From Tubulanus polymorphus (lineage: Eukaryota; Animalia; Nemertea), in assembly GCF_964204645.1 (NCBI RefSeq), contig NC_134028.1:8494001-8558000 (forward strand): a DNA stretch of 64,000 bases, written 5' to 3'. The position numbers and the translations under genes are program-made. This document shows positions 25,506-47,100 of this stretch, piece after piece. A model generated the notes under the pieces. The model did no database searches. It worked only from the letters and a program-made list of their open reading frames with translations, and was not told the DNA's origin. How positions within the stretch are numbered: the first letter of the stretch is position 1; the number at the start of each line of letters is the position of its first letter.

Positions 25506-26191
25506 AATAAACCAAACGTTTCTTCCAAAACGACTTGATATTTTGTGCATGGTTATTAAAATATTATAAAAAAATGAAATATATTAATATTTGTACAATT
25601 ATGTATATTTACTTGTGTTCTAAAAATAGAAACTGTTCATAATACATGTTTATCTTCATTTTGGTTTCGTCCCATTTGCTGGATTTTTTAATTTGGATTT
25701 GTCATATATACTGCTGGCATGCGAACCAGATTCCAGATCGCCTTGCCGGTTCAATAGGCGTTTTCGCTTTACGTACATGCACTGAGGATGAAATTTAAAA
25801 CAACTACGGAACCGCACGGATACCGTAGCGTGTTCAGGGGGAGGGGGATTTTATTTGTCGAAAATCAATTGATATCAGAGCCAACACAACCGAGACTTCC
25901 ACTCCATTTTTGTCATTACTTCATTTTACAACCTAAACACAATTAGTTTTGTTAAGGAATGACGGTATGATTTTTAAGCAAATAATGCCGTTCAAAAGAG
26001 TGTGCCATCGGAAACTCGTAGGTCATATAATGTTCCATTTAATTGTATTTGTTTTGCTTCTGGCAGGGCGGGAGATTCTCGAACCCGTGTTTGTGGCCTT
26101 ACCGTCCGGCTTACGTGGGAGGATACTCTGGCATGTGAGTAAAGATCAAAGCAACGATGACGGCCGACAATCAGTCATGTGACTGTTCAAA

Positions 26192-29100
26192 ATGGCGGAT
26201 TTCTACGATATCCGTCTTGCTCGAATTATCGTACTTGGAATATCATTTATGTTGATGTTCACTGCATTTCAAACATGCTCTATGATCGAGGTATTTAAAG
26301 TTAATCTGTTCTATCCATATCACTTGAGATTTGTTGATGACAAGTGGTGGAATGGTGGTTTATGTGGCTAAAGCGTGCAGGCCGGTTTAGTAGTCTGAAT
26401 ACCAGTCGTTGCGACAGTTGTTTGGGGCACAGGGACTTGTCACATTTGATAGTGAATGAATAAAACCAGTATCAATGACCAACTCCAGTATCCCTGTATG
26501 ATAAAAAAAACTAATCATCAATCTGAAAATGACCTCTCCACATCAACCTCCTGTAATTCCGTAATACTAATGCAGACACACTTACCAACAAACTCCACGA
26601 ACTCCATTTGTTTGTAAAGATAACCCGGACATGACGATATCGGAGGTTCATCCGAAAAATTATCCACGTAACTGCATAGGTGTAAGTAATTAGAAAAGTG
26701 GGGTTTCAGATCAGAGGGCGAGAGGGCGAGACACCACTCATCACCACAAGTAATTTTTTTTTCCTACTCATCACCACAAGTAATTTTTTTTCCTTATAAA
26801 TGGGGGAGAATGAACACCAGCCAGAAAACAATAATGTCAATAAAAATCAATATTATTGCCAATATTGTAAAAAATACATCGATACATCTCATAAAACACG
26901 ACATGAAAAAACTGCAAATCATATAAAAAATGTAATAGATTTTGAAACTCCAGAAAATTCTAATGAAAGAAAAGAACGATTAGAAAATATGAATGTGGAT
27001 GAAATAAAATGTGAAGTTTGTAACGAATTTATAGTAAAAAGGAATTATAATAGACATCTCGAATCACAAAAACATTATAAAAATTTAAATAAAAATGTTT
27101 TAGGATTAGAATATTTTGATAATAAACCTCAACAAGTAAAAGAATCAACTTCAAAAACAAAATCTATTTCAAATAAACCTTACATGGAAAATGTTAGAAA
27201 TTATATTGATTCACTAGAAATAAAAGATACAATTGAAATCTTAGAAACATTACATAGTAAAATTGGTCCTGCAGCTATTATATTTAGATTTTTTAAAGGT
27301 ACAACAATAGAAGATTATAGTAAATTTAATGAAATAATAGAAAAAATACTAGATTTGATAACAGATGTTGAATATCCAAAAATTAGTATCTCTGGGAAAG
27401 TAAGTTTTATAAAGTCAGAAGAAAAAATGAATTATAATATTCAAACACTCTCTGAAGAAATAATTTCAAAAACACAAATAAAAGAGAAGTTAGAAAAAAT
27501 ATTAAATGAATTTAAACGTCATATTGAAGAAAGATATTTTGAGGGTTCTGGCTTAACATTGAATGAAATTATATATTTAGATTTAAATGTTTATAATACA
27601 AAAAGGAATAAAACATCAAAAAGTAATAAAATGTTTAAAAATGATTCAAACTTTACAACAGAAAAGGATATTAAAGCATCATCTTATATTAAATTACCAT
27701 TTATAACAAAAGCAGTAATAAATATTCAAAATGAAGATAATAAATGTTTTCTATGGTCAATTATTAGTTGCTTACATCCAACACAGGAAAATGTTTGTAG
27801 AATAACAGATTATCGGAAATATGAAACATTATATAAAATTGATCAATATCCAGTAACTATAAAAATGATTCCTAAAATAGAAAAAGTTAATAATTTAAAA
27901 ATAAATGTATTCGAATTAATGCAATTACCAAAAACAAAAGGTGAAAATATTAAAGATTATACATTGGAAGCTTTATATTTAACAGAATATTATGATGATG
28001 AAAATGCTATAGATTTGTTATATTATAAAAAAGATGAAAATGAACATTATATGTGGTTAAAACAAATTGATTTATTCTTTAGAACAACAGAAAGTGATCA
28101 TCATCGTAAAATTTATCTATGTAGAAAATGTTTGTCTAAATTTATGACTGAGAATACATTATTAAAACATAAAGAATTATGTGATAATAAAGATTTTTGT
28201 AAATTAATAATGCCAACAGAAAAAGATTATAAATTGAAATTTACTAATCATAAATTTAAAAATATTATTCCATTTGTAATTTATGGGGATTTTGAATCGT
28301 TGAATAAAGAATTAACTGATCAAGATAGAAAAGAAATATATAACAAAAAGCAATTATTAAAATCAATGGATAAAGGAAATGAATTAAATGAAGACACAAT
28401 ACAAGACCCGCCAATTATAAATACAATTAAAAAAGTTCATCAAAGAGCTGCTGCTTATGGAATTTACATCAAATCAAATTATCCCGAATTATATGAAAGT
28501 CAATATATTTCTTTTAGAGGTGAAAATGTAGTTAATGATTTTTGTGATAAAATGATTGAATTAGAAAGTGATTTTACAAAATTATTAAACAAAAATAAAT
28601 GAATAGTTATGACAAAAGAAGATGAAATTGATTTTAATTATGCAACTCATTGTTGTTATTGTGAAAAACGTTTTTATTCATTTGATAAAAGAGTTAGAGA
28701 TCATGATCATTTGAATTCAAAATATCGTGGAGCTGCTCATGAAGATTGCAATTTACAAGCTAAAAAAGTAAATTTCGTACCAATATTATTTCATAATTTA
28801 TCAGGATATGATACCCATCTATTTATAAAACAATTATCGGGAAAATTGGGAGCAATTAATCAAGAAATAGAAGAATATAATGCTATGAATGAAGCAAATG
28901 TAAGAAAATATGATTTTAAACTATTAGCTAAAACATCTGAAAATTATATTTCATTTCAATTTGGTTGCATTAGATTTTTAGATTCTTATAGATTTCTTGC
29001 AAGTTCATTAGATAATTTATCAAAAAGTTTAGTTGATAATGATTTTGTTATAACTCGATATTATTATCCAAATGAACAAGATTTTAAATTATTGAGATAT

Positions 29101-32100
29101 AAAGGTGCAATTCCTTATTCATTTTATAAAACACATGATGATTTTAATGTAACAGAATTATTAAAAGATCAATTTTATGATCAATTAAAAGAGGAGTATG
29201 TGAAAGACGAAGTTTTTAATAGAACATTAAATATTTGGAACCATTTTAATATGAAAAATCATGGTGAATTAGTTGATTTATATTTAAAATCAGATGTTAT
29301 GATATTGGCAGATATATTTGAAAAGTTTAGAGAAGTTAATCTAAACCATTTTAATGTTGACCCTTGTTATTGTTATTCAAGTCCTGGTTTAACCTGGCAA
29401 TGTGGTTTAAAATATACAAATGTAGAATTAGATTTATTAAAAGAACCAGATATGGTTTTATTATTTGAAAAATCAATTAGAGGTGGAATTAGTGGTGTTA
29501 TGGGAGATAGGTATTTTAAAGCAAATGATGAATATAAATTATTATATATTGACGCTAATAATTTATATGGTTGGGCAATGATGCAACCTCAACCATATAA
29601 AAATTTTATATTAACAGAAGTTGAAAATGATGATAAAACTGATTGGGAAAGCGCAATTACGAGTTTAAAAGATGAAGCGCCAATTGGTTATTTCTTCGTT
29701 GTAGATTTGGAATATCCCGAAAATATAAAGTTTAAAACAAGAAACTTGCCATATTGCCCAGAACATTTAACCGTAGATGATAGTTATTTAAGTGAATACC
29801 AGAAGAAAGTAAAACCGAAAGATCATGTTTTTACGGAAAAATTAATACTTACTCAAAATAATAAATACAATTATATTGTTCATTATAGAATGTTAAAATT
29901 TTATCTAAAACAAGGAATGAAATTAAAGAAAGTACATAGATATATTGAATTTAATCAATCGAAGTGGTTAGAAAAATATATAGATTTCAATACTCAACAG
30001 AGAACCATATCAAAAACAGATTTTGAAAAAGATTTCTTCAAATTAATGAATAATAGTTTTTATGGTAAAACATGTGAAAATATTAGAAATAGAAATGATA
30101 TTGAATTAGTAAATAATTCTGAAAGATTAAGACATTTACAATCAAGTCCTAGACATTTAGGAAATAAAAGATTTGAAGATTATTTAACAGCAGTTAAATT
30201 AAAAAGAACATCAATGAAATTTAATAAACCTATATTTATTGGTTCGACTGTTTTAGAAGTATCAAAATTATTAATGTATGATTTTTATTATAATGTTTTA
30301 CAACCACTTTTTGGAGAAAAACATATAGAAATATTATATTTTGATTCTGTAACAGCTGACACCCCAATATTATTAAAATACAATAACCAAATATTGGTAA
30401 GAAGAATTTCAGAAATAATTTCAAAACAAAATGAATGTTATATTTCATATGGTGAAAAAGAATTAATGCAAATAAATGGATTAATGGATGTTTGGACAAG
30501 AAATGGATGGAAAAAATTAAAGAATATTATTAGACATAAAACAAATAAGAAAATCTATAGAGTTAGAACTAAATTAGGATTTGTAGATGTAACAGAAGAC
30601 CATAGTTTAATTAAACGAAATGGTGATGAAATAAAACCAACTGATATAAAAATTGGAGATGAAATTATTACATAAAAGATTTTACCCAAGAATGAATCAT
30701 ATGTCATTTGATGAAATAATTGATAATATTTATAATATAGAACCTGAAACATTGGAAGAAAAAGAATATTTTATCAAAGGATTTTTCATGGGTGATGGTT
30801 CAGCAGGTGTGTATAAATATGTTAATCGCAATAAATATTGTTGGTATTTATGCAATCAAGATTTGAAATTATTAGAAAGAATAAAGAAATTTTGCGAAGA
30901 AGTTTATTCACATAAAACATTTAGAATCATGGACCATATGAAATCATCCGCGGTTTATAGAATATTTGTAAATAATCCTAAAGATTTTGCTACAAAATAT
31001 AATGATGAATTCTATATTCATGCAATAGTGAAAAGTAATACTTCAACTAAAGAAAAGATAGTTCCAGATTATGTATTAAATGCAAAAAATAATTTAAGAA
31101 AATGGTTCTTCATTGGATTCTATGCTGCAGATGGTTCAAAAAGTTTCAAAAACCACAAAACAATATCCTTTGCTCAAAAAGGAAAAGTTGCTATATCAGG
31201 ATTAAATATATTATGCAGTTCATTAGGATTTAATATGAATATAGAATTAATTAAATCTAAACCAAATTGTTTTAATTTAAGGCATGTAGAAAAAGAATTA
31301 ACAGAAGAAGTTAAAGATTTATTTGAAATATATAACCCAACTGACTATGTTTATGATTTATCAACAGATGACGGAACATTCAATTCTGGGTTCCCATTAA
31401 TCCAAAAAAATACTGACAGTTACATACTAAAAATCAAGACAAATGATATAACAAAAGACTTAAAAACATTAAAACATCATTTTGATTTTAGCAATTATCC
31501 CAAAGATCATGAACTATTTAGCAATGATAATAAAAAGATTCCTGGTAAATTTAAAGATGAATTAGGAGGTGATGAAATGATTGAATTTGTTGGGATAAGA
31601 AGTAAAATGTATTCATATAAAACTAAAGAACATGAAGCTAAAAAGTTAAAAGGAATAACAAAACATGTGGTTGATAAACATATAGAATTTCAAGATTATA
31701 TAAAGTGTTTATATAAATCAATTGTAATGAAACACAAAATGAATTGTTTAAGATCAGAAAATCATGAAATGTATATAAATGAAGTTGAAAAAACTAGTTT
31801 AAATCCATTTGATGATAAAAGGCATATTTTAGATGATGGTATAAAAACATTACCTTATGGCCATTAAAACATAAAATCAATATCATCAAACTCGAAATCA
31901 CTATTGGCTTCTTCATTTTCATTTAATTGTTCAGGTTCTTCTTCAATTCCATTTTTCTCATTTAAATAAATTTCTATCTTGTTCCACATTTCATCTCGCT
32001 CTCTTTGTTTCTTTTTGTTTGTTAATTCATCAAATGGAATTATAATATCTAGGTTTAAATAATTTACAATCTTATTTAAAAAGAATTCATAATTTATTGA

Positions 32101-35100
32101 ATCTGTTATTCTATTTTCCAAATGATACATTAATATTTGTTTAAATATTTTTTTTATATTTTCCATATCTTCTTCTGTTAATTTAGGTTTTTCATAATAA
32201 TCGTTAAATAATAAATATAAATACATTTTCTTTTGTTTTGTGTTAAATGTTGACGGAATAATTGTTTTTATAATATCTTTTTTAGTTATTTCACCATTTT
32301 TATTTTCTATTATTTTCATTTTTTCAAGCCATTGCATATATTCTGGTGTATGATCTTCTATAGAAAATATTTTAAAAATTTCATCTAGATAATTTAATTT
32401 TGGTTCTATGAGAAAATCTCTAGTTTTTTCTTCACCCCATAAATTCTTTTGCCATCCACATTCAACACAAAATAACACAGCACCTTCTTGTCTTAAGGTC
32501 GCATAACTACATTGTGGGCATTTTCGTTTATAATTTATTGGTAATAGATCTTCATTAAGCTCTTGGTATTTTCTTACGTTTTCTTTATGTTTTATTGTTC
32601 TATTATGTAGATTTGAATTACTTGTTGTAATAATCAATTTACAATATTTACAATAATATGTTTTTCTTGTTAATTCATTATATTGTTTTTCTAACTTTTC
32701 AACTGTTTCTTTATTATCTGGTAACGTTTTCTCATATTTTATTTTTTCTAATAAATTATTTTTTCTTTCATTGAATTCAGTTTCAAATTTATTAGAAATT
32801 TTATCTATATGTGCTTTACGAAATTGATGATTCTCCCAATCTTCTATATTTTCAGGGTTATATTTTATTCGACAAGGCTCACAGAAATGATCTTTTATAT
32901 TATCCTTATCATAGAATAAGAAAGGTCTTTTCCAAATAACTTCAGGTTCAACTTCGGCAGATTTACTATCAACATTAGCCGTTGCGCCATTAATTCTACA
33001 CTTCTCTGAATGTTTTTTAACATAATTTCTTGAGAATAATTTATTACATTTTGGACAGTTTATTTTAGGGGGTTTATAATTTTCATCATGTTTTTTCATA
33101 TGTCGAGCCTTATTACTTTTTCTTAGAAGTTCACCACAAATTTCGCATGCTATCTTCTCTTCCATTTATTAAGGAAAAATTTTATTAAAATTAATTTTTA
33201 GTGATGAGCGGTAATTTTTTTATGTTATAAATAATGGTAGAATTAAAAGAATACAGAATATTTGTAGATTCTAGAAGACTTACAAATTATAAATCTCATA
33301 ATTTATTAATACAATTAGATAGAGAATTTAAGAATTGCGTTGATTTAAAATTAGTAAATATTAGTTTATGTAATTCTTTTTACAATGTAACGGATAAAAG
33401 TCTTGAACATTTAATTTTTTCAATCTTTTATAAAAAAAGGAATAAATGGTTTTTTATATATTTAAAACCAGGATTATATAATTTAAATACATTAGCACAA
33501 GAAATTAATAGAAAAGCTCGAGCTAAATTAGGAAGTGATTCTGGATTTAATATTAGAATTTTAAAAAGTGCTAGTTCTAATAAAATAAAGATTAGGTTAG
33601 ACGAACAATTTAAATTTACAGTAAGAAAACCTTTAGGTAAACTGTTAGGAATTGCCCCAGATATTGTTACAGCATACGCAGAAGGTAAATCAAACTTAAT
33701 ACCTTTTACACACTTTTATATTTATTGTAATTTAATCGATCCTACAAAAACATTCGAAGCAACTAAAGATATAACTTGTAATTCTGGTTTACTAAACATT
33801 TTACCATTGAAGAATGTTAAAGAATTTGGAACGCAAATAAATTATAATTTAACGGAATGTGATTTCAAACCTTGTATTCCTCAATTTAATAATTTTAAAT
33901 TAGAAATAAGAAATCATAATGGATACTTAATTGATTTGAATAACTTTCCTGTAATTTATGAATTAGTTATAAGATGTAAAGAGTAATTTTTCACCTATAT
34001 AAATGAATATAACTGTTGGACCGAGTATATGTTTTGGTTTTGATTTTAAACGTGAGAAAGAAATGAAATTTAATATGAATGATGTAATTACACATATCAA
34101 AAATATTGCATTTTCTAATGAAACAACATTTGAGTATGAAACAACAATAGATAAAGAAACTTTTAATGTAGAAAAGATTACTAATTTAATTAGAGAATCT
34201 TTAAGATTTTATGAATTAGATGAAGATTTTATAATCGATGATATCAAAAAAATAATAATTGAAATATATACAAATGAAACTAGTAATAAAATAAATGTTG
34301 AATTAATCATCACTAATTTAACTAAATATTTTGATGATAGTAATTTTTTTGATTAATAAATGAGTGATAATAAGTGGATAATAACTGGATTATATAATGG
34401 AGCATTACTATCAGTTGGAACTGTTGGTTATTCAATGGTATTAAAAAAAGTATTCAAAATGGGAAGTGTTAATGTTGATAGATTTGATATAAATGATATT
34501 CTAAAATTAACATTAGCAGTTACTTTATCTAATTTAACAATTGATTATTTGGAAAAACAAAAATATATTCCCCCCATATAAATGTATAATTTTTTTGCTA
34601 AATAAATGGCTTCTGCAATTATAACTATTATAGGATCAGCAATCGTTAACGCTTTAGCATTTACTGGTGGTGGATATTTATTTAAACATATTGATAAAAA
34701 TAGTTCATTAGGAGAACAAAGAAGACATAACTTAGCGTTAGAGAAATATAATAAAGATGCAGAAGAATATAGAGAAAAGAGACAAAACTATATGGATTAC
34801 ATCAATAAAGAATTATATGATCAGAAGATTTCACATAGAGATTTTCAATCAGTCGATGATGCAATGAGTTTATATAACGCGGTAACAAATAAAGAAAAAT
34901 TACATCTTTACAAACCTAAATTATCAGATTATTATACCCCAAGTAAAGAACAACAGAAATATGAAATAATATGGATTTTAGGTGGAACAGTTATTGTTAT
35001 ATTTGTTGCTTATAAGTTTACTAATTAGTAATTTTTTTTCTAAATAAATGGAAGATAAAGTTGATAGTATTGATATTATTCCTCATGATATAAATAAAAC

Positions 35101-38100
35101 TAAATTAAAAACATATTTAAAAAAACAAATATTAGAATTTGAAAGTGACTTAAAGATAAAAAAGAAAAAATATTTAAAAAGTAAAATTATATATTATCTT
35201 ATTATTAGTGGTTCGGTTACAATTAGTTCTGTAATAACATTTCTAGCAATATTCAGTCCATTAACACCTTTAGCTATATCAATTGGTGTATTAGGATTAA
35301 GTTCAAGTGTTTTAACTGGTATAAGTTCAAAATTAAATATAAAAAGTAATAAAGAAAAAATAAAATCTAATATAAAAGAAATTAATAAATTAAAGAATAC
35401 ACTAGATTATATAATAAGTTTAAATGGTCATATAACAGTTGAAGAACAAGATAAATTATTAAAAGAATTAATAAATTATTAATTTTTTAATTATATAAAT
35501 GGTAGAAAGTTTTCCAAAAACTTTCCGATATAATAAATCAATTAAATATAATATTCCAGCAATAGATTTTAATAAAGATATTACATATAGAAATGAAGTT
35601 TTAAATTCATTAATTGATTTATATATTTATGTTACTGAAAGTAATAATTTTAATGCAAAGATGGAAAATATATTTCATGTATATTTAATTAATTTTAAAA
35701 AATTGAAAGATGAAAAACAATGGTTATTAAAATCTAATATGAAGTATTGGCAGAACCAATTAAATTTTGCTGTTTATTGTGCAACAACAGGATGTGGAAT
35801 AAGTTGGAATGATCATTTGAATAATTCTAAATATAAATTAATTCAAAGTTTATTTAGATTTCATACATACTTTCAAATCAGAATAATATTAAATGAATTA
35901 GAGTGCGCTTTACCAGGATCTAGATATTTTAAAGAATTAGATAATAATATTAATTTATCAAAGTTTTATAAAATTTGTAATGAATTTAATATAGATATAA
36001 ATAATTCTGATTTTAGAATAAAAATTGGAACAATAAGATCACTTCCATGCCCTAGAAAGATTGCAGAATATTGTGCACTTCCCATACCATCTAATAGCTT
36101 TTATAATATCTATAATAAAAAATTAGGTTATGGTAAAATAGAAACAAAGGATTTAGAAACATTAAATTTCAATAAATTACCGAAATTTTATGATAATTTA
36201 AAACAAGAAAACAATAATGGTTGGGTTTATTTTATTTTAGAAAATAGTGAAGGTTTTACTAAATCAGGTATAGAAAGAATAAATCAATCTATTAGAACTT
36301 ATTTGATTTGTATTCTAGGATCACAAGTTGAAACAAGATCACCGATAATTGGAAATTTGAATACATCATTCGATACACAAAAACAATTCAAAGTTTTATT
36401 TGAAGATTCAATTCATAATGATAAAAATAGATCGATTCCAGAAAACATTATAAGATATCAAAATTATTTAGATAAATCTCATGTAAGACTTAATTATTGT
36501 ATAGGCCCTAATCTATTAATTATTTCTAATGATTTAGTATTAAAGATGGGAAATATAATTGGTTATAATAATCTAATTAAAACAGCAACAATAAATAATT
36601 CATTTGGATTAAATGATATAAATAAAAAGATTATTACTGCTCCAAAATTAATGGAAGGTGAAAAAAATAAAAAACACATTCAATCAACAGAAACTAAAAC
36701 TAAGAATATTAAATTGGTTAATGATTCCAAAATAAAAGATTACAATACATCAGAAAATAATAGAACTAATAATATTCAACATGATATAATTAAACTAAAT
36801 GATGATAATAAATCACATGAAAATACTAAATTAGCTATAACTTGTATAGGAATTGTAATCGGAGGAATATTATATTTTAAATTTTAATTTTCTTTATTAT
36901 ATAAATGGAAGTAGAAGGTGTAGAAGATATTGGAATGGATCCTTTTGATAAACCTGGTATAACTGATGAACAACCACCTAATTTTGATGAAACAAGTTTT
37001 AATGATGGTAATGAAACAGCATATAATTCTAATTTAACTACACCCCAATTTATTGACAAAGCACGTTCAAAGATAAGTATTGAAAATGAAGTACCAGAAA
37101 TAACAGAAAAAGAATACAATTATAATGAATTTATTAATGATTTTAAACCTTTATTTGAAGAATCTGGTTATAATATAAATGAAAGAGGCGCTAGACTTTT
37201 AGTAAAAGATTTAAAATATTTAGATGGTGAATATTATTATTATTTGGATGGTGATAATTTAAATGGTGAATTTTATATTAATATCTCTTATAAAAATCAA
37301 AACAAAATATTAGCAGAATCAACTTTGATTAAGTTAGAACCAGATAGAATTAAGAGAATAAGTAATAGTAATGAAATAACTGTTGTTACACAAGAAGAAA
37401 TAGATCACTTTAAAAAATTATTTAAAAAAAGAATTAATGAGTTATTTAACAAAATCTATGATAATTTAGAACCAGAAATGGAAGAGAATAGAAATCGATT
37501 AGATAGATTGAGATCTTCAACACCCGAAACATCGAGAAGAGACACTCAACCAATTGATAATGATTCAAGTCAATTACAATTACAATTACAATTAGAAAAA
37601 CAAATTAATAGATTAAGTGATTCAGAAGAAGAAATGAATAGTACTGGAATAAATCGACTGCAATATTTACTAGAAAAAGGATTTCTTAATTTAACTGATG
37701 AAGAATTAGAAGCATTTCCTGAACAAATACGTAGAGAAATTAAAGGTATACAAGTATCAGCTGATGAAATTGCTAATATTAAGATGAGATTTTCTAAAAT
37801 AACCATGTTAGAAAAAGAATTAACTAATGCAGATGAAGAATTAAAACAATTAGAATTAAATAGAGATCTTAATGTAATTTATGAAGCTGATTATGAAAGC
37901 AGAAAGTTAGCTTTAGTAAAAGAAATAGATGATTTAGAATATAACATAAAATTACAAAAAGAAGAAAGAGATATATTATTAAAATCATATGATCTTAATC
38001 ATATTAAAAAATTAAAAGTTATTTTTAAAGATTTGTTGATTAAACCAGATTCTGAAATATCATTAAAAGACAGAATAAGATTATTATTTAAATTAGAAGG

Positions 38101-41100
38101 AATAACAATTCTTTCAATTGTAACAGCTGTAACTATGTTATTTACAACAATTGGTTTAGCAATATCAAATGCTTTGAAATCTACTCCTACTCCCACTCCC
38201 AATAAACCAGATAAACCTCCAGGTAATAATTCTATACAAGATAAAGTTAAAGATGGTTTAAAGAAATTAGCAAAATATTTATGGGAACTATCAAAGAAAT
38301 CTGCTGCAGCTTTACCGGGAGTTATTGCTTCAATTGTTGGTTTTATATTGAAATCTGCAGGTAATATTCTTAACTTTGCTGCTGAACATATTATTTTATT
38401 TTTAATTACAGTTGTAAGTGCTATTATTTTTGGGTTAGTAAATATGATATCAAAAAATATCAAGTAAACCATGATATCAAAAAATATCAAAAAATAAATA
38501 ATTAATTTTTTTGTTAAATAAATGAGTGGGAGTTATATAAGTCCTTCGAAGAATCATAGAATATCTAATGCTATTAAAGCAGAGAGATCACATCATATAA
38601 TTACTCATAACCCTTCTAATATTAATCCCGATGAAACTTTATACGTTAGAATCCCTCGATTAACACAAAATACTTTTTATGTTCCAAACAGTATTTATTT
38701 ATCAGCCGATATAAAAGTAACTGGCCATGATAACAATTATGTTGTTGATAATGTTGGAAGATATTTGATTAAAAAATTAACTATAAAGATTGGTCCGGAA
38801 ACAGTTTTCTCATTAGATGATTATAATTTATTTATGCATTATAAAGATTTATGGTTAACTAAAGAAAATAGAAATAATATGATATTTCAAGGCATCCAAT
38901 CGGAAAACCATAATAAATTAAGATCTGAAGCCAATAATGCAGTAGTAACTCGTGCCACAGATAATTTGATTAAAAAGATTTATGGAAGCAAATATAAAAT
39001 TCCATTAGACTTTGAATTGATAAATAATAATGCACCTTTATATAAATACGCAATTCAAGAAGATATTATATTTGAGATAACATTTGCTCCTGTAAATGAA
39101 ATTGTATTATCTAGCGTTGTTAAAGATATGGGTTATAAATTATCGAATATATGTTTAGAATATAACACAGTAACTAATGAAAATATTGCTAGCACAATTC
39201 AAACTCAATACAATCAAGGATTTTCATTATTATATGATTATATTGATAAATTTAAAACTGTAACTATTAATGCAAATGATGAAATAATTAATGAGAATAT
39301 TAACTTTCCTAGAAGATCTATTAAAGGTATATTAATATTTTTTACTATTGCAACATATTCTAATGGTGCAATAAATGTTGATAATTATTATAATCCTGAA
39401 ATAACAAAAGTAGAAATAACTATTGAAGGTATAGCGAATAAAATATTTTGTCAAGGAATGAGAATGATAGATCAATGGGTAGAAATTAAAAAACATTTTA
39501 TGAATGAAAAAGTAAAATCATTTGAAAATTGTAATATTAATCAAATTGATTATTATACCGGTAATAAATATGCATTATGGTTAGATTTTAGAACAACTGA
39601 AGATAATTCATTACATGGTTCTGGAAAAAAACTACAAAATACAAAAGATGGAATACAATTATTCATGAAAAAGAATAAAGGAATCAAAAATTTTAAAATG
39701 CACATTTATATTATATCTGATGCGCAATTAAATATTGTAAATTCACAATTAGATAGTATTCAATATTAGAAATATAAAGTTAAAATTAAGTGTATATAAA
39801 TGGGTGGTAAAAAATCTCCTAATACTAAAGAACAATATTTAAGAAATTTATATTACAACCCTGAGAGTTCGGTTGCTTATTCTTCTACCAAACATATATG
39901 GCGTCAAGTAAAACAAGATAAATTAGATAAGATAATCCCACAAAATTTAGTTAAATATAAAGATATAAATGAATTTATGTTAGAACAACCAACATATACA
40001 ACACATAAAAAAATTGTTAGAAAATATGAAACTCGTAAAACTATGGTAAGTTATGTAGATCAACAGTGGCAAGGAGATTTAATTGATAGGAAAAATGTTA
40101 AGAAAGATAATGATGATTATTGGTGGTTATTGAATATAATTGATATTTTTAGTCGTTATGTATGGAGTTTCCCACTTTATAGAAAAGATGCTGCACAAAC
40201 ATCACATGTTTTAAGAAAATTTCTTTCGGATGATAAACTAAAACCAGAAAAAATACAATTTGATGATGGAAAAGAATTTGATAATTCACTTGTTCATGAA
40301 CTCTTAGATAATCATAATATTAAATATTTTTCAACAAAATCAGATAAAAAAGCAGCAGTTGTTGAACGATTTAATAGAACATTAAGAACAAGAATGTGGA
40401 AATATTTTACAGCAAATAATACTTTTAAATGGATTGATGTTTTACCAAAATTGATAGAAGGATATAATAATTCTTATCATTCTTCTATTGGAATGAAACC
40501 TATTGATGCTAGAAAATCTGAAAATGCTGAAATTGTTTGGAATAATTTATATGGAGCATTTCTTATAGATGATTTTGGTGAACCTAAATTTAAAGTTGGT
40601 CAAAATGTTAGAATTTCTAAGTATAAAAAGATATTTGATAAAGGATACGATCGAAATTTTACTAGGGAAATATATAAAATAAAAAAGGTAATAACAACAA
40701 AACCATATGTCTATAAATTAGAAGATTTAGATGGTGAAGAAGTTGATGGATATTTTTATGAAGAAGAATTAAGTTTAACTACTGAAAATCTAGAACAAGA
40801 ATATAAAATTGAAAAAGTATTAAAAACAAAAACTATTAAAAGAAAAAAATATTCTTTAGTAAAATGGGTTGGATGGCCAGATAAATTCAATGAATGGATA
40901 TTATCAAGTAAAATTAAAAATATATAAATGAATAAGGAATTACTCATATTTGAGCCTCATAATATGTTAATTTCTGGTGTAACAAATTGTGGAAAAACTT
41001 ATTTTATATTACATTTATTAGAAACTGTTTATGAAAACTATTTTGATAATATAGTATTATTTTGTCCAACATATGAATTTAATCAAACTTATGATAGAAA

Positions 41101-44100
41101 TATTACTAGGAATAATAAATTTATTATATTAGATCCTAAAACAGTAAAAGAAAATTTAGATAATTGTATTAAAATAGCAATTGATATTTATAAAGGATCA
41201 AATACATTATTTATCATAGATGATTGTGCAAATTTACATGATTCTAAAATTAGAGAAAGTGAGTTATGTTATTTAGCTTTCTCTGGGAGACATTTTGGGA
41301 TAACAACTTGGGTTTTAAATCAAAAATATAATTCAATTGTTAAAGACTTTAGAGAAAACATTAGATTTCTAGTTTTATTCTACAATAAAGATAGAAAATC
41401 AATGAAAAATGCACTTGAGGAAAATGATATTATTCCACATGATTTACATAATGAATATATGGATGAGTTGAAAAATATCAAAAGATCAAAATTACTATTT
41501 AGATTACAACACCCATTTAAATATGAATTTATTTAAATTCAATTAGTTTGTTAATCTAGTTGAATTCTAGTTATTGGTAGTTGTAACAAAAATCAAATAG
41601 ATTTAACAATATTTTAACTAGCTTGTTAATCTATTTTAATTCTAGTTACATTCTAGTTGAATTCTAGTTGTTAGTAGTTGAAACAAAAATCAACTAGATT
41701 TAACAAGAAATAAATAAAAACAACAATATTTCAACTAGCTTGTTAATCTAGTTGAATTCTAGTTACATTCTAGTTAAATTCTAGTTGCAACATCACACAA
41801 TTAATTTTTTTGTTATATAAATGGTAGGTGAAAAGAAAATAAAATCTAAAAATGGTGATGTTCCAATTGAAAAAACTTTAGATAATTTAGGAATAACAGA
41901 AACAAAATTAACTCCAGATGATGGTGTTTTAAATAATGTTACAACAAATAATAATTATGAATATTATCTTTATTGTAAACATCAATTAGAAATATTAATA
42001 GCATCTGGAAAATGTAAAAATTTTGTCAGTAAAAATTTAACTTATAATGAATTAGACACAATGAAATCAGATGAAATTATTAAATTATTTAAGATTTATG
42101 AAGCCGCGAGAACAGCTAGAATTAATGACGCGATATCAGAAAATGTAGTAAAAGGTTATAGTAAATTATGTAATTATATACTACCAATTGAAGATGAAAA
42201 TAGATTATATTCCGATTTAAAAAATGATTATTTAGTTATGACTGAATTAAATAAATGGATTGGATATTTATCATTTCAATTAGGTGGATTTATGACATTA
42301 TTATCAACTGGAGTTATAACATTTTCAAATATTGAAAGTAAAAATATTTCTATAATAAATGAGCGAGGTGAAAGAAGTGAAGGAATTAACTGTGAAGAAA
42401 AAACCGAGAACTCAGAAACAAATTGAATGGTCTCGACAATTAGGAATTAAATCACAAGAATATAAAAAAGCTGTAAAAGAAAAAATAAGTAATAAAAATG
42501 TTAATAAAAATGGTGAAAATATTGTTATTTCTACTCCTTCTGATAGTAGAATATTTGATAAATATTTATATTTTACAGTTGGATTTGTAATTGTATTCAT
42601 TTTGATTGGGTGTAGTTGGTATAAGAAATCAAATAAAATTCATAATATTAGTAATTCTGAACCAACTGCTATCAAAAATGAAAGTACTTCTGAAATTCCA
42701 AAATTGATAATAAAAAAAATGGATTAATATTTTAGAAAAAAAAGTAAAAAAAATAATTAAATATCTCACTACTTTTGTCTATCTATGTGGAGCAATTAAA
42801 TTGTCCAGATAAGTCATTTCGGATTCTAGATATTCATTATTTTTATTAATTTATTTTGTTTTTATTTGAATATTTGAATTTGAATTTGTTAATCAATTAA
42901 CATAGTAATTGATTACTAATTTGATTAAAAATTATATCATAATTAAGTTAAAAATACATAATTCATTTATCAGTTTTCATTCTTACATTCTTTTCATTTG
43001 GAATAATTTATAATTTCAAATTTCACATATTTTTTTAACACCAACAACATTTACTTAGGTGTTTTAGCTAAGTATATAAGGCAATTCATTCAACCACTGG
43101 AGTAGCTCTAGCCAGCAGAGGCATTTTGAAAATGCACCTTCGTCCACTCTCTGGGTTTCTACTTCGGTTTCGAATTTCGAGATTGGTAGAAATTACATTA
43201 GGCGCCTTTAATATAATGTGATTTCTACCAATCATTGAAGGAGATCCCGGTTGATGTGGGTCTCCGGGGGTGTAAGTAGAAATGACGGGGGATAAGCGTC
43301 CCGTGGCGCCTTTCAATAATGGGATGCTTATCCCCTGAAAACTCTGTAGGTCGAGGATAGGGCAATTTTGCTAAAACTTACCGTAAAAACATTGAAATAT
43401 TCCTTTTAATCACGAGAGAATGATGACTATCCTCCTATCGTCACAGCTGAGCTAATTTAAATAAACCTCGTTTTCAGCAACTAATGAAAACGCAGTAATT
43501 CGATACCAGCTAACTGGTTTGTGTGTGTTGTATGTACTACGTGCTTATTATAACAACAACGTTGTGCAACACCTGTTTGATTGATCAATATTCAAATGAA
43601 GCACTCTCTTATAATAATATGTAACAGATGTACTGTATGATTGTAGTTGTTTATAAAACGACTAAGGTCATTTTGGATTCTAGATATTCATTATTTTTAT
43701 TTCTTATTTAATCAACAATTTCTAAATCATGATGACCGTCTTCATTTTTCCCATGATATATTATTTTAAATCCTACTAAATCTTTCAATTCCTCCGTACT
43801 CAATGAAACCCATTTATCGGGTAAAAACACTTTAAATTCTCGCGATGTACTAACATTACAGTAGCTTAAATTAGCTGATACTTTCTCTCCATATTTAGTT
43901 TTTATCTTTTCTAATTTCAATATTTTATGTTCAATTTCTTTTGTAACATCAACTAACTTTTTTATTTCAAATTGTTTTTTTGCTGGTTTTATTCTGTTAT
44001 TTATTGTTGCTAAGAATGCTTTTCTATCTCCCATTTATTAGGAAAAAAAATTACTTGTGGTGATGAGTGGTGTCTCGCCCTCTCGCCCTCTGATCTGAAA

Positions 44101-47100
44101 CCCCACTTTTCTAATTACTGGTGTAAGCGTTTATTTTACGAAGCACCGTCAACGGCGGAAGAGTAGTTATTATCTATGTGAAACACGGTATTGATTATTG
44201 CGAACTCTTATCATATGAAGTAACCAATGATAATCTTTGGATAAAATTAGAAAACTACAACCGGGGTGTATCTACTGAAGCCCTAATGCATCCATCGATG
44301 AGAGTAGGGAGATTTGATTTATAAGATGTCAAAAGAGATACGCCCTATGCCGAAATTATTATCTGTGGAGATATGAATTTTTATCCTGAGATAGACTGGA
44401 ATGAGATGTCCACCAAGTTAGGGTTGCCAACTGCTCCGGAAAGATTCGTGATTATTTTCTCACCCAGCACGTATAGATCAACCAACAAGGCACCGTGCAA
44501 ACCAGCGTAGGTCACGACTGTCAACATAAGGCACCCCTTCTGGGAGCGAAGACCACGTCATTATTATTTTTAATCTCAATTGATTTTAATGAACTTCCGA
44601 GGAGTGTTAATGTATGAAGTGGTGAACCTACGATAAAGTGAGGGACGAAATGTGTAAACAAAACTCATTTGACTGTCAAATCAGTTTTGTTTTGACAACT
44701 CGTCAGACAGCTTATCAAGCTTGGATGTCACATTTAGCTGATATTTAATTAGAGATTCGATATGTGATCTAACCAAAAGGTTTGTACCCTGTTATAGAAT
44801 TACCCATGAGCACGACGAAGGTAAAAAGCCCATTTGGATGAATGCCCCGGCTCTAAGGAAAGTTAAAATGAAACACTACAGAGAGCCTGGTAAAGGTATC
44901 TCACCACCAAGAACGGTAAGTTTAACAAATTGTATCAACAAAAGAAACTTTGCGCGAAGAGAAATAAAAAGAGCCGTCAGATTGTACGAAAAAAAACTAT
45001 CGTGAACAAGGTTAGAAAAACCCTTAGGCATTCTGGAGTTACATGAATACTAGATCTAAAATCAAACAAAAAACAGACATACCGCCTTCGGTTTCAACAA
45101 CGGTTCGATACTTTCAGATGACAAAGAGATAGCTAAACTATTTAACACCTTCTTTAGTCGCGTGTTCACGGAGAAAAATTTGACGAGCTTTCCCGATCGA
45201 GCACCGAAGGTTTTAGAAAACATAAGTAATATTGATATAGATGCCGAACTAGTATAGAAACATTTGAATAACCTAAATATACAAGAGCCCAGGCCCTGAT
45301 ACTCTCACCGAGAGTATACTCGGGGAACTGTCCGTTGAGCTTTGTTTACCTTTGGCGATTCTTTTTGAAAAATCGCTAAAACTATGGTCACTTACCATCG
45401 GACTGGAAAATTGGTCTTATAATGCCTATCCTAAAAAGGACGAAAAGACGAAGTTAGAAATTACCACCCTGACAATTATCAGGCATACAACAATGGAGCA
45501 CTTAAGATACATCGATATCCCCTGCACAACATAGCTTTGTACCCAAAAAGGAATTGTCAGACCAACCTGTCAATGTCTCTTGAGAAATGGACCAGTAAAC
45601 TCGACCGAAAAGGTATGGTTGACTCAATTTACATAGACTTCGAATAGGTGTTTGATAGGGTACCTCAGTGCCACCAACGTTTGACAAGGAAACTACGTAA
45701 TATGGGTATAGACGGCAAGGTCTTAGATTGGATATCAGATTTCCGAAGGAAAAAACCCGAGCGTGACTTAAGCATTCCGCGTTATTGAACTTCGTTTTGT
45801 GAATAATATTAGGCGGCTCCGAAATGTTCTCGGTTATTATCAGGATATCTAATTTTATGCGCTCTGCGTGATATATGCATTTTGCTGAAGACCCGTGTGA
45901 GTTATCCTGTAACATCTTCTGAACAAACCAATGATGATCGTAAATGTCAATAATGAATGTCTATCACGTCCACGATTCCCCGGTCTCGGCACATAAGAAA
46001 AAGATACAGTAAACCTTGCGTAAGTCGTATAATCGCTTATATAGGATGAATATTGATGGTCCCGAATTTTCCTTCTTTTTTCTAATAAATTAACATCCCA
46101 ATATTTCCTCCAATTCAAAAGTCGGTAACTCGCCATACTCGTAGTATATCTTTTCTTGGCCCCAAAATAAAAATCAGGATTACTAAAAAAATCGAGATTA
46201 ATCACCGAAAGCCAAAGGGATATATATTCTTCCCATTGCAGTTTGATTTCTTCCCTGTTCCGACCCCTGTTTCTTGCTTGGAATCGACGATGCATTTGAC
46301 AGACGTTATTATTGTGTTTTAGAAAAATAAACCGGAAATATTTCAGTGTTTTCAAAACATTTGTTGATTTAATTTTTCCGTTCACAGAAACTGATTCTCA
46401 AGTCGTAGTTTTCGGAAAGTGGTGAAATCCGACTTATTCAACGTCAGATTTTCCATGTTGGGGGATTTTTCTTGTTCCCAAAAGATCTGACTTACACAAG
46501 GTTTACACTTAGCCTATTGGATTCTTCATGATACGACGGCTTTTGAAGTGTTGCCCGAATGCTGTAAGCAGGCAGTAGGACTTGAACCCGCTTGTCACGT
46601 GCATTATCCCCCTGAGTTATTGAAGCTGCTTAACTTTTAATAATTTGGAAAGACTGGGAAAATCCGATCTATTTCTATTGCAGGAGACAGTAATCGAAGG
46701 AGCAATAAATGAACCAAACAGTACATTCACCGGAAATGGATATACAAGGTTTTATTTGCATACGAAAAAATCAGATGTAGTCCTGCGATTCATTTTCGCG
46801 AAAAATGTGTTAAATCGAAAACCATTTATTTCAGTCTGGCGATAATTTATGTGTCACTCGCAGTGTCGAATTGGGCGGCGCCTTCGATTGTTAGCGTGTT
46901 AGGCCTCAAAATATCGATGATGGTATCTGGTGCTATTTATGCGTGGGTATTTTTATATTCTATTCAATTTTTTTGTATTAAGTTTGAGCGTTGAAGAATA
47001 AGATAGCTTCATAATAACAGTAAGGTAGTGGGTATCATGTCGACATGACAATGTTGTAACTAAAGCGTTCTTGACTGTGACGTAGTGGCAGCGATATAGA

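Follow-up and report, generated by a model that had tools for sequence, protein, structure and literature searches.

Animal Polintons could be autonomous nuclear viruses or parasites of larger viruses; the question is open, and a helper is known for almost none of them. Here we describe a Polinton integrated in the genome of the nemertean Tubulanus polymorphus, within a stretch of 64,000 nucleotides (NC_134028.1, positions 8,494,001 to 8,558,000; the window). On its minus strand, the element carries a homolog of the poxvirus late transcription factor VLTF-3 (vaccinia A2) fused to zinc fingers (ZnF-VLTF3). Nearly all genes of the element begin at a motif that resembles a poxvirus late promoter.

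Mavirus, a virophage, integrates by means of a retroviral-type integrase. Mavirus and Sputnik use the late promoters of their helpers, and the polinton-like virus (PLV) Gezel-14T likewise uses a helper motif (bioRxiv 2022.07.28.501842; the literature is cited here from excerpts of the papers, except where a main text is named). The element would share with these viruses the arrangement of genes under the promoter motif of a helper. It would differ in that their helpers are Imitervirales and their motifs are others, whereas the element would bring a helper-type late factor of its own.

VLTF3 lies outside the canonical Polinton gene set, as a first-pass annotation of the window pointed out, but it is not unprecedented in polintoviruses. 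It has been recorded in coral elements (PMC11131425, citing Krupovic and Koonin 2016), in a MELD virus, where a figure key gives it as mimivirus-like (PMC8502044), in Zephyrvirus clusters (bioRxiv 2026.06.19.733378), and in bioRxiv 2022.07.28.501842. Like the element, whose capsid protein is a probable one, these polintoviruses and PLVs are small double jelly-roll viruses that carry a giant-virus VLTF3. They differ by description, as none of their genes is called poxvirus-type, finger-fused, or promoter-linked in the excerpts; the coral genes may belong to the same clade. Entomopoxvirus-associated PLVs are also small polintovirus-like elements and have been proposed to be poxvirus hyperparasites that exchange genes with their helper, but they are about 12 kb long and were found in lepidopteran occlusion bodies and a beetle (PMC11296320). 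The main text of that paper contains no occurrence of VLTF3, promoter, TAAAT, transcription factor, or intein. Poxvirus-associated PLVs also appear in bioRxiv 2026.10.13.758929.

Group 2 Maverick-Polintons, in which gene content is variable (bioRxiv 2026.06.19.733378), share with the element a protein-primed DNA polymerase (pPolB), an RVE integrase, an A32 ATPase, a capsid protein (probable in the element), terminal repeats, a 6-bp target duplication, and an animal host. The element differs from them in its VLTF3, in the intein of its pPolB, and in the T at position −3 of nearly every gene start, and a cysteine protease was not found in it. Poxvirus-satellite PLVs and polintovirus VLTF3 are thus already in print, but we did not find a report of a poxvirus-type VLTF3 together with poxvirus-type, late-promoter-like motifs in a Polinton (the library searched lacks most subscription journals, figures, and supplements). 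Poxviruses in molluscs were not found in the literature either, which proves little.

A Polinton VLTF3 domain that groups with poxvirus A2

The first-pass annotation had read ZnF-VLTF3 as an intact open reading frame (ORF), one of only two minus-strand genes, that meets the pPolB stop tail to tail and fuses a VLTF3 to zinc fingers. The sequence bears this out. The frame is open over 433 codons, its stop overlaps that of pPolB by 4 nt, and four N-terminal fingers are visible (coordinates are given in Table 1). Apart from it, only the 108-aa ORF at the right end has a start motif of its own on this strand; further minus-strand ORFs are antisense frames within longer genes. The zinc ribbon, C216-x2-C219-x13-C233-x2-C236-G, begins at nt 32520, and the A2-like peptide LTEEDMENIKKIFKQILMYHLENRITDSINYEFFLNKI (aa 329 to 366) and W394 are both present, all as described from the letters alone.

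The annotation had proposed a Pfam search and a structure search of the C-terminal part, and both confirm aa 205 to 410 as a VLTF3 domain by sequence profile and predicted fold. This segment matches PF04947 (Pox_VLTF3) at 26.6 bits (E 5.6e-6; cut-off 25), and its last 105 aa reach 28.9 bits (E 1.1e-6; same cut-off); VLTF3 was not listed in a Pfam scan of the full-length protein. Among 30 ESM Atlas matches (top score 0.96), 27 belong to the PF04947 set. The AlphaFold2 model of the domain, made from a 9-row alignment (predicted local distance difference test [pLDDT] score, 82.7), consists of a beta ribbon and a helical bundle. Its top Foldseek match among the predicted viral structures of BFVD is cowpox VLTF3 (E 1.3e-6; template modeling [TM] score, 0.62), and of the 10 matches at E ≤ 0.001, those ranked 1, 3, and 6 are named poxvirus VLTF3 proteins (3 and 6 from entomopoxviruses). 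Solved structures gave no match by sequence profile or by Foldseek at E ≤ 0.001. With VIA-align, the bundle matched a chain of the Pol III initiation complex (Z 6.2) and two TFIIB entries (Z 5.6 and 5.3). These matches fit, but do not decide for, a single cyclin-type repeat rather than the two of TFIIB, and the likeness would be one of working mode, not of TFIIB family membership. A solved structure of A2 was not found in these searches, and the VLTF3 of the element would offer a small natural variant for the study of A2.

Poxvirus VLTF-3 (PF04947, PF08792) and the domain share a C4 ribbon with a 13-residue loop, a short linker, a helical bundle, a Y-x-F-x-L-x-x-I motif, and a terminal W. The protein of the element differs in its 204-aa N-terminal extension, four zinc fingers, and acidic tail; its domain is 22 to 25% identical to entomopox A2 and leaves PF08792 unmatched. 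Its carrier is an integrated element of 17 kb in which RNA polymerase and VLTF2 were not detected. The fingers are formed by C7/C10/H22/H26, C37/C40/H52/C56, C95/C98/H113/H119, and C172/C175/H187/H193. The first two resemble CTCF-type C2H2 fingers (CTCF E 2e-4; Foldseek rows weak), and the fourth matches zf-U1 (28.9 bits). The fourth also resembles the first finger of pPolB in the same element (38% identity over 39 aa), and thus the fusion may have drawn on parts of the element itself.

A phmmer search over 1.84 billion representatives gave five matches. Two are zinc-finger fusions of the same build (P0002, 50% identity; P0003, 39%), and one (P0005) is a 226-aa poxvirus-type A2 with PF04947 and PF08792, the sole match that Pfam assigns to VLTF3. 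The remaining two are a divergent stand-alone protein (P0004) and an unrelated cysteine-rich protein. A profile search, for which the profile included P0005, returned one unnamed and three named matches, and all three of the latter are entomopoxvirus VLTF-3. A word-index protein search with aa 205 to 410 gave no match, although phmmer finds relatives, and no relatives turned up when viral contigs were scanned with ZnF-VLTF3, an alignment of it, or the probable capsid protein.

Outgroup VLTF3 genes were drawn from viral contigs by short motifs, and 11 of 11 spot-checked genes pass PF04947. The labels of the sets (chordopox-type, Imitervirales/Algavirales-like, Pimascovirales-like, and asfuvirus-like) are our assumption, based on sequence motifs. 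Profiles free of Polinton sequences score the domain at 32.9 bits (18 chordopox-type A2 rows) and 30.6 bits (5 entomopox-type rows), compared with 11.1, −2.0, and 0.8 bits for three other giant-virus VLTF3 profiles (20, 16, and 10 rows). All 5 entomopox rows have the 13-residue ribbon loop, as do 8 of 9 chordopox rows and 3 of 4 Polinton rows, versus 1 of 36 others. The linker from ribbon to helix measures 22 to 26 residues in 3 of 4 Polinton rows and 20 to 24 in 14 pox rows; in 33 of the 34 other rows that could be measured it is 29 to 34, that is, about 8 to 10 residues longer.

Phylogenetic trees gave the same grouping. In a 54-row tree (4 Polinton-type, 5 entomopox-type, and 9 of 18 chordopox-type rows, with 14 of 20, 12 of 16, and 10 of 10 rows of the other sets), the Polinton rows join the poxviruses with a Shimodaira-Hasegawa-like approximate likelihood ratio test (SH-aLRT) value of 99. 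Support is 100/100 for 3 Polinton and 10 pox rows in a 37-row tree, and the join survives the omission of either pox group (SH-aLRT 97 and 98). A clade of Polinton and asfuvirus-like rows is rejected by the approximately unbiased (AU) test (p-AU 0.033). From the 37-row, AU, and leave-out trees, 14 near-redundant rows were removed, as were P0004 and two long rows of the asfuvirus-like set. Profiles, ribbon geometry, and trees therefore agree, among the sampled sets, with the initial view that the domain is nearer the poxvirus form than the mimivirus/phycodnavirus form, and they support its grouping with poxvirus A2, as far as sequence goes, rather than with the three other sampled sets. The same view held that a grouping with poxviruses would point to the type of helper. 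The grouping was found, but by itself it identifies a donor-like group and no helper.

Some of the relatives deserve mention in their own right. P0004 is a 281-aa, very divergent pox-type VLTF3 on assemblies of up to 13 kb, and it falls on the pox side of the 54-row tree on a very long branch. P0005 and a further entomopox-type A2, P0014, lie on 9-kb and 39-kb contigs; they pair with each other apart from the named betaentomopoxviruses and may mark undescribed poxviruses.

Gene starts with a motif resembling the poxvirus late promoter

TAAATG stands at 14 of the 17 ORF starts of the element versus 40 of its 664 other ATGs (p 4e-14) and 47 of 1,643 host ATGs. Three ORFs start otherwise: one, a gene, has TAAATAATG, and the other two are internal fragments of pPolB. 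The motif is fixed in position (TAA, −19 to −17; T-tract, −16 to −10), and its strict bipartite form, TAATTTTYT...TAAATG, occurs at 9 of 17 starts but at none of the 664 other ATGs. The gap between T-run and TAAAT is 5 to 7 nt in nine genes and 8 to 10 nt in three; a T4 run is absent near the start in 3 of 15. This layout matches, in sequence, that of the published vaccinia late promoter, which has T residues, a 5- to 7-bp spacer, and TAAAT(G/A) (PMC5294985). At intermediate promoters, the poxviral polymerase reads a TAAA initiator directly, and TAAA is frequent outside promoters too (PMC12917281).

Real gene starts on two contigs with VLTF3 orthologs, L313 and L314, have TAAATG in three of three cases. 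At 22 other pPolB loci, TAAATG occurs at 15 of 202 ORFs (7 of them from one contig, L316) and the bipartite motif at 0 of 202; it is also absent from the four control loci below 30% G+C. In the element, 14 of 15 gene starts have T at −3, a position held by a purine in 142 of the 195 control starts (p 5e-7), so the motif is not a translation-start preference. It is also located in both terminal repeats, and each repeat would thus drive its first gene inward. Most intergenic gaps are 3 to 30 nt or are replaced by overlaps, and the TAAATG start of the ATPase gene is built from the TAA stop of the integrase gene. The first-pass annotation had already raised a helper; the main support for that idea is this promoter-like motif, which was absent from the annotation, and the helper itself remains inferred.

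The terminal seven bases of the element, AGTAATT (26685 to 26691), are also the start of the promoter-like core (AGTAATTTTTT), as at the gene starts at 34339 and 35027, and one candidate explanation is a protein that binds both ends and promoters.

We also considered avoidance of the early terminator TTTTTNT (9 observed, about 20 expected). It was rejected, because TTTTTN[ACG], T6, and A7 are equally depleted, in many control loci as well, which indicates a general avoidance of homopolymers.

L316 (1 to 9034; 38% G+C) is an unrelated-looking contig with pPolB, integrase, and ATPase genes, and several of its seven starts have TAAG upstream. TAAG is a baculovirus-late-like word, and L316 is possibly another helper-wired Polinton.

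A probable satellite of a poxvirus-related helper and its alternatives

We favor, with a probability of roughly one half, the reading that the element is a virophage-like satellite: a helper related to poxviruses would supply the RNA polymerase that transcribes its genes, and the captured A2 would steer that polymerase to them. Late transcription in poxviruses starts inside TAAA, and slippage there adds a 5' poly(A) leader. If the start motif of the element is read in the same way, such a leader would explain why T, and not the purine usual in the host, stands at −3. No RNA polymerase or capping enzyme was detected by Pfam among the ORFs of the element, and a VLTF2 (A1) profile from 29 poxvirus loci had no match in its six frames; the element would need all of these from a helper. 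Late machinery of the helper would first express the element, including the captured A2, which has a zinc ribbon and one cyclin/TFIIB-like bundle and would become part of the late initiation complex of the helper. The added zinc fingers would hold it on the DNA of the element, and polymerase would be drawn to the satellite genes at the helper's cost. Donor and helper would both belong to an unsampled poxvirus-like lineage of a marine invertebrate. A pox-type late factor and a late-like motif at almost every gene are two independent signals, and they point to the same type of helper. We also considered the zinc fingers as a stand-in for VLTF2, but this found no sequence support, as the A1 profile matches nothing.

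The case is specific and testable: some animal Polintons would be satellites of poxvirus relatives that carry part of the late machinery of their helper. If so, promoter motifs could assign helpers to animal Polintons in bulk, and a satellite with an initiation factor of its helper would represent a new way of hijacking a virus factory. A poxvirus relative should then exist in the host group of the element, from which we know of none. A more far-reaching version, which we consider possible but tentative, is that a lineage of marine-invertebrate Polintons consists of poxvirus virophages with a retargeted, DNA-tethered late factor, which would capture the poxviral polymerase for late-type promoters of the satellite, and bears witness to an undiscovered lineage of poxviruses of molluscs or their kin, older than the split between those of insects and vertebrates.

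Several results weigh against the satellite reading. The domain scores only about 31 to 33 bits against poxvirus A2, versus about 50 to 69 bits between the two poxvirus groups, and the chordopox set was picked by a motif resembling the query, which favors the chordopox profile. PF08792, the ribbon model of pox A2L, has no match even at E 10, despite a cysteine spacing equal to that of chordopox A2. The position among poxviruses is loose: Polinton and entomopox rows join at 68/69, and chordopox plus entomopox without the Polinton rows, which would make the clade sister to Poxviridae and not nested inside, is not rejected (p-AU 0.377). Branches are long, the tree tool issued a long-branch warning, and the trees omit VLTF3 of egoviruses, mriyaviruses, fish poxviruses, coral Polintons, and PLVs. 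In Foldseek, a Megaviridae VLTF3 ranks fifth with the domain and second with the whole protein at E-values near those of the pox matches, and the models were made from alignments containing entomopox rows. The TFIIB/cyclin matches reach only Z 5 to 6, which the tool rates as common; they are tied with cyclins, and none is at Z 8.

The promoter evidence has limits too. At 76% A+T, such motifs come cheap, a point addressed by the internal and low-G+C controls, and L316 has TAAATG at 7 of 7 ORFs without a VLTF3 in its 9 kb, so TAAATG alone is not tied to VLTF3. No helper is known for the element, and a presumed RNA run yielded only two short partial contigs and hence no evidence on expression. 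Inteins are known from other giant viruses, and if the pPolB intein indicates any contact, it is with viruses other than poxviruses. The route from an integrated nuclear copy to a cytoplasmic polymerase is a difficulty for this reading, as it is for proviral mavirus, and keeps alive a role for the host polymerase.

The element could instead be autonomous in the nucleus, with host RNA polymerase II as the partner of the captured A2. The latter would then be a late activator of the Polinton itself, with DNA specificity from its fingers, and the motif, inherited from a poxvirus-like donor, would be its binding site and would no longer be read by a helper. We regard this as unlikely, though it survives best among the alternatives. 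Several giant viruses without an RNA polymerase retain VLTF3, and the family can thus likely act with a host polymerase. Mriyaviruses of 35 to 45 kb retain both VLTF2 and VLTF3 (PMC11253617). Integration into nuclear DNA, the many variant copies, and the resemblance of the first two fingers to DNA-binding C2H2 arrays such as that of CTCF also suit a nuclear life. However, TATAAA/TAAA abuts the ATG, and, given polymerase II geometry, transcription from a TATA box there would begin within the reading frame. At 14 of 15 genes the −3 base is T, which would be a poor start context without a slippage leader, intergenic gaps are mostly 3 to 30 nt or overlaps, and no VLTF2 partner is encoded.

Two further alternatives keep a large virus in the picture and change the role or the origin of the factor. 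In the first, which we judge improbable, the element again depends as a satellite on a poxvirus-like helper, but its A2 copy would not promote transcription of the element. It would instead be a dominant-negative mimic under fast evolution, which would jam the late complex of the helper and thereby protect the host. The comparison with L313, where the VLTF3 ortholog lies tail to tail with an uninterrupted, intein-free pPolB, bears on this; a third ortholog is on the short contig L314. Between the window and L313, the VLTF3 domain is 50% identical and pPolB 82%, and the nonsynonymous proportion of differences (pN) is 0.30 for the domain versus 0.11 for pPolB at similar synonymous proportions (pS, 0.35 and 0.37). 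Change in the domain is thus about threefold that in pPolB; chordopox A2, in contrast, is very strongly conserved. The orthologs nevertheless keep an open frame, the ribbon's four cysteines, and the motifs of the helical core. With a G+C content of about 0.11 to 0.15 at third codon positions, synonymous sites are almost saturated, so values of dN/dS are not reliable. Moreover, the late-type motif stands on the element's own genes, and a block of late transcription would silence the element as well.

In the second, which seems more improbable still, donor and helper come from another Pokkesviricetes-type or deep lineage, such as the egoviruses, and the grouping with poxviruses results from missing taxa and long-branch attraction. 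The long stems and the long-branch warning would fit. Egoviruses, the closest relatives of poxviruses, have a VLTF3 that needed its own hidden Markov model, and they gave Polintons a gene (bioRxiv 2024.03.23.586382); asfuvirus late promoters are likewise bipartite (PMC5294985). Against this, the 13-residue ribbon loop, the short linker, the profile scores, and the TAAATG initiator point to poxviruses, and the AU test rejects the asfuvirus-like placement. Least credible is a passenger gene without a role in transcription, with TAAATG as a by-product of AT-rich, tightly packed genes: the 76% A+T, the fast divergence, and the patchy occurrence of VLTF3 among polintoviruses (PMC11131425) would suit it, but open frame and zinc ligands are kept at the same position in orthologs of 40 to 50% identity, and the position-fixed bipartite motif is found at 0 of 664 other ATGs and 0 of 202 control ORFs but in both terminal repeats.

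Boundaries, copy family, and other genes of the element

The Polinton forms an AT-rich island of 17.4 kb (26685 to 44119), with a G+C content of about 0.21 to 0.25 compared with 0.35 to 0.42 outside. Its inverted repeats include a 77-nt arm that is 100% complementary and a 42-nt arm at 95%. Protein-primed PolB, RVE integrase, terminal inverted repeats, a 6-bp target duplication, and a packaging ATPase identify it as a Polinton (Table 1).

Table 1. Features of the Polinton and its ZnF-VLTF3 gene (window coordinates)
Feature	Position	Strand	Remarks
Left target-site duplication, GGTGTA	26679..26684		Same 6-mer beside right end
Left terminal inverted repeat	26685..26807	+	Its end is the T-tract/TAAATG motif opening pPolB
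pPolB N-terminal part, two U1-type zinc fingers	26800..28602	+	In-frame stop ends ORF in this copy; zf-U1
pPolB core, then intein N-terminal part from 30343	28609..30675	+	PF03175, 75.5 bits
Rest of intein (LAGLIDADG nuclease, to about 31411) and pPolB C-terminus	30659..31867	+	PF14528, 32.6 bits
ZnF-VLTF3 gene, 433 aa, unbroken	31864..33165	−	Orthologs P0002 (L313) and P0003 (L314)
VLTF3 domain, poxvirus A2-type (aa 205 to 410): C4 zinc ribbon and one cyclin/TFIIB-like helical bundle	31936..32553	−	
N-terminal extension, 204 aa: two C2H2/C2HC fingers and two U1-type fingers joined by a helical hairpin	32554..33165	−	
Start motif of VLTF3 gene: T5, 6-nt spacer, TAAATG	33163..33185	−	Same layout in L313 ortholog
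Seven tightly packed genes (250, 117, 73, 140, 144, 462, and 520 aa)	33234..38467	+	6 of 7 start at TAAATG; mostly unassigned
Probable capsid protein	38522..39769	+	Capsid_N, E 0.013, below cut-off
Retroviral-type integrase with chromodomain	39800..40927	+	PF00665, 40.7 bits
A32-like packaging ATPase	40928..41536	+	PF04665, 50.1 bits
Two genes (201 and 122 aa)	41821..42727	+	Both begin at TAAATG; unassigned
108-aa ORF	43708..44034	−	Opened by motif within right terminal repeat
Right terminal inverted repeat	44027..44119	−	
Right target-site duplication, GGTGTA	44120..44125		

Three public runs of one organism span all 30 bins of 26000 to 42700 with thousands of variant contigs, and in one run 15,236 contigs align to the element, 85 to 100% alike. 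These variants indicate that the element is part of a multicopy family. As one public-run contig has no difference from 32538 to 32853, the VLTF3 gene is not an assembly artifact. At 33087 to 33295, some public-run contigs match the start of the 250-aa gene and then diverge upstream (loose ends at 33233), hinting at family members in which another or a diverged gene replaces VLTF3.

The N-terminal part of pPolB is 67% identical over 584 aa to the uninterrupted, 1,336-aa pPolB of L313, and the core is 81% identical up to YFD. The third ORF is out of frame with the preceding one, and its last 151 aa are 82% identical to the same protein. An intein with a LAGLIDADG nuclease (30343 to 31411, plus strand) is inserted at the YFD/TDS catalytic motif, a site that is empty in L313; its N-terminal part matches TIGR01445 at 38.1 bits (cut-off 24.5). 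To our knowledge, inteins are unusual in elements that have integrated into animal genomes. In excerpts of PMC11161782 and PMC12220804, no Polinton intein is reported. The pPolB of this copy is broken by an in-frame stop (28600 to 28609) and by a frame change inside the intein (30659 to 30675), while the other genes are open, and this copy is therefore likely unable to replicate alone.

For the seven packed genes, Pfam gave nothing above cut-off. The first (250 aa) possibly encodes a minor capsid protein, judging from its size and position. The 144-aa product (35048 to 35482, plus strand) is a two-helix membrane protein with a weak match to SLATT (E 0.0055), and SLATT genes are listed among other Polinton-related viruses (PMC8502044, bioRxiv 2026.06.19.733378). 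Atlas neighbors of the capsid candidate score 0.97, with double jelly-roll/capsid families on only 10 to 24% of members. The 108-aa ORF has no family above cut-off, and none of the 17 ORFs of the element has a Pfam match to an Ulp1/adenain cysteine (maturation) protease, which is core in group 1 Polintons, although several of these ORFs have no assigned function. Outside the element, the window holds two single-exon host ORFs on the plus strand, for a MoaC-family protein (4078 to 5025) and a RING-finger protein (5305 to 6447). Of five other proteins that match the RING-finger protein, the three with names come from limpets and are 33 to 34% identical to it. Within the element, the noncoding tract between the ATPase gene and the next gene (41540 to 41810) consists of imperfect 11-nt units (TCTAGTTGAAT).

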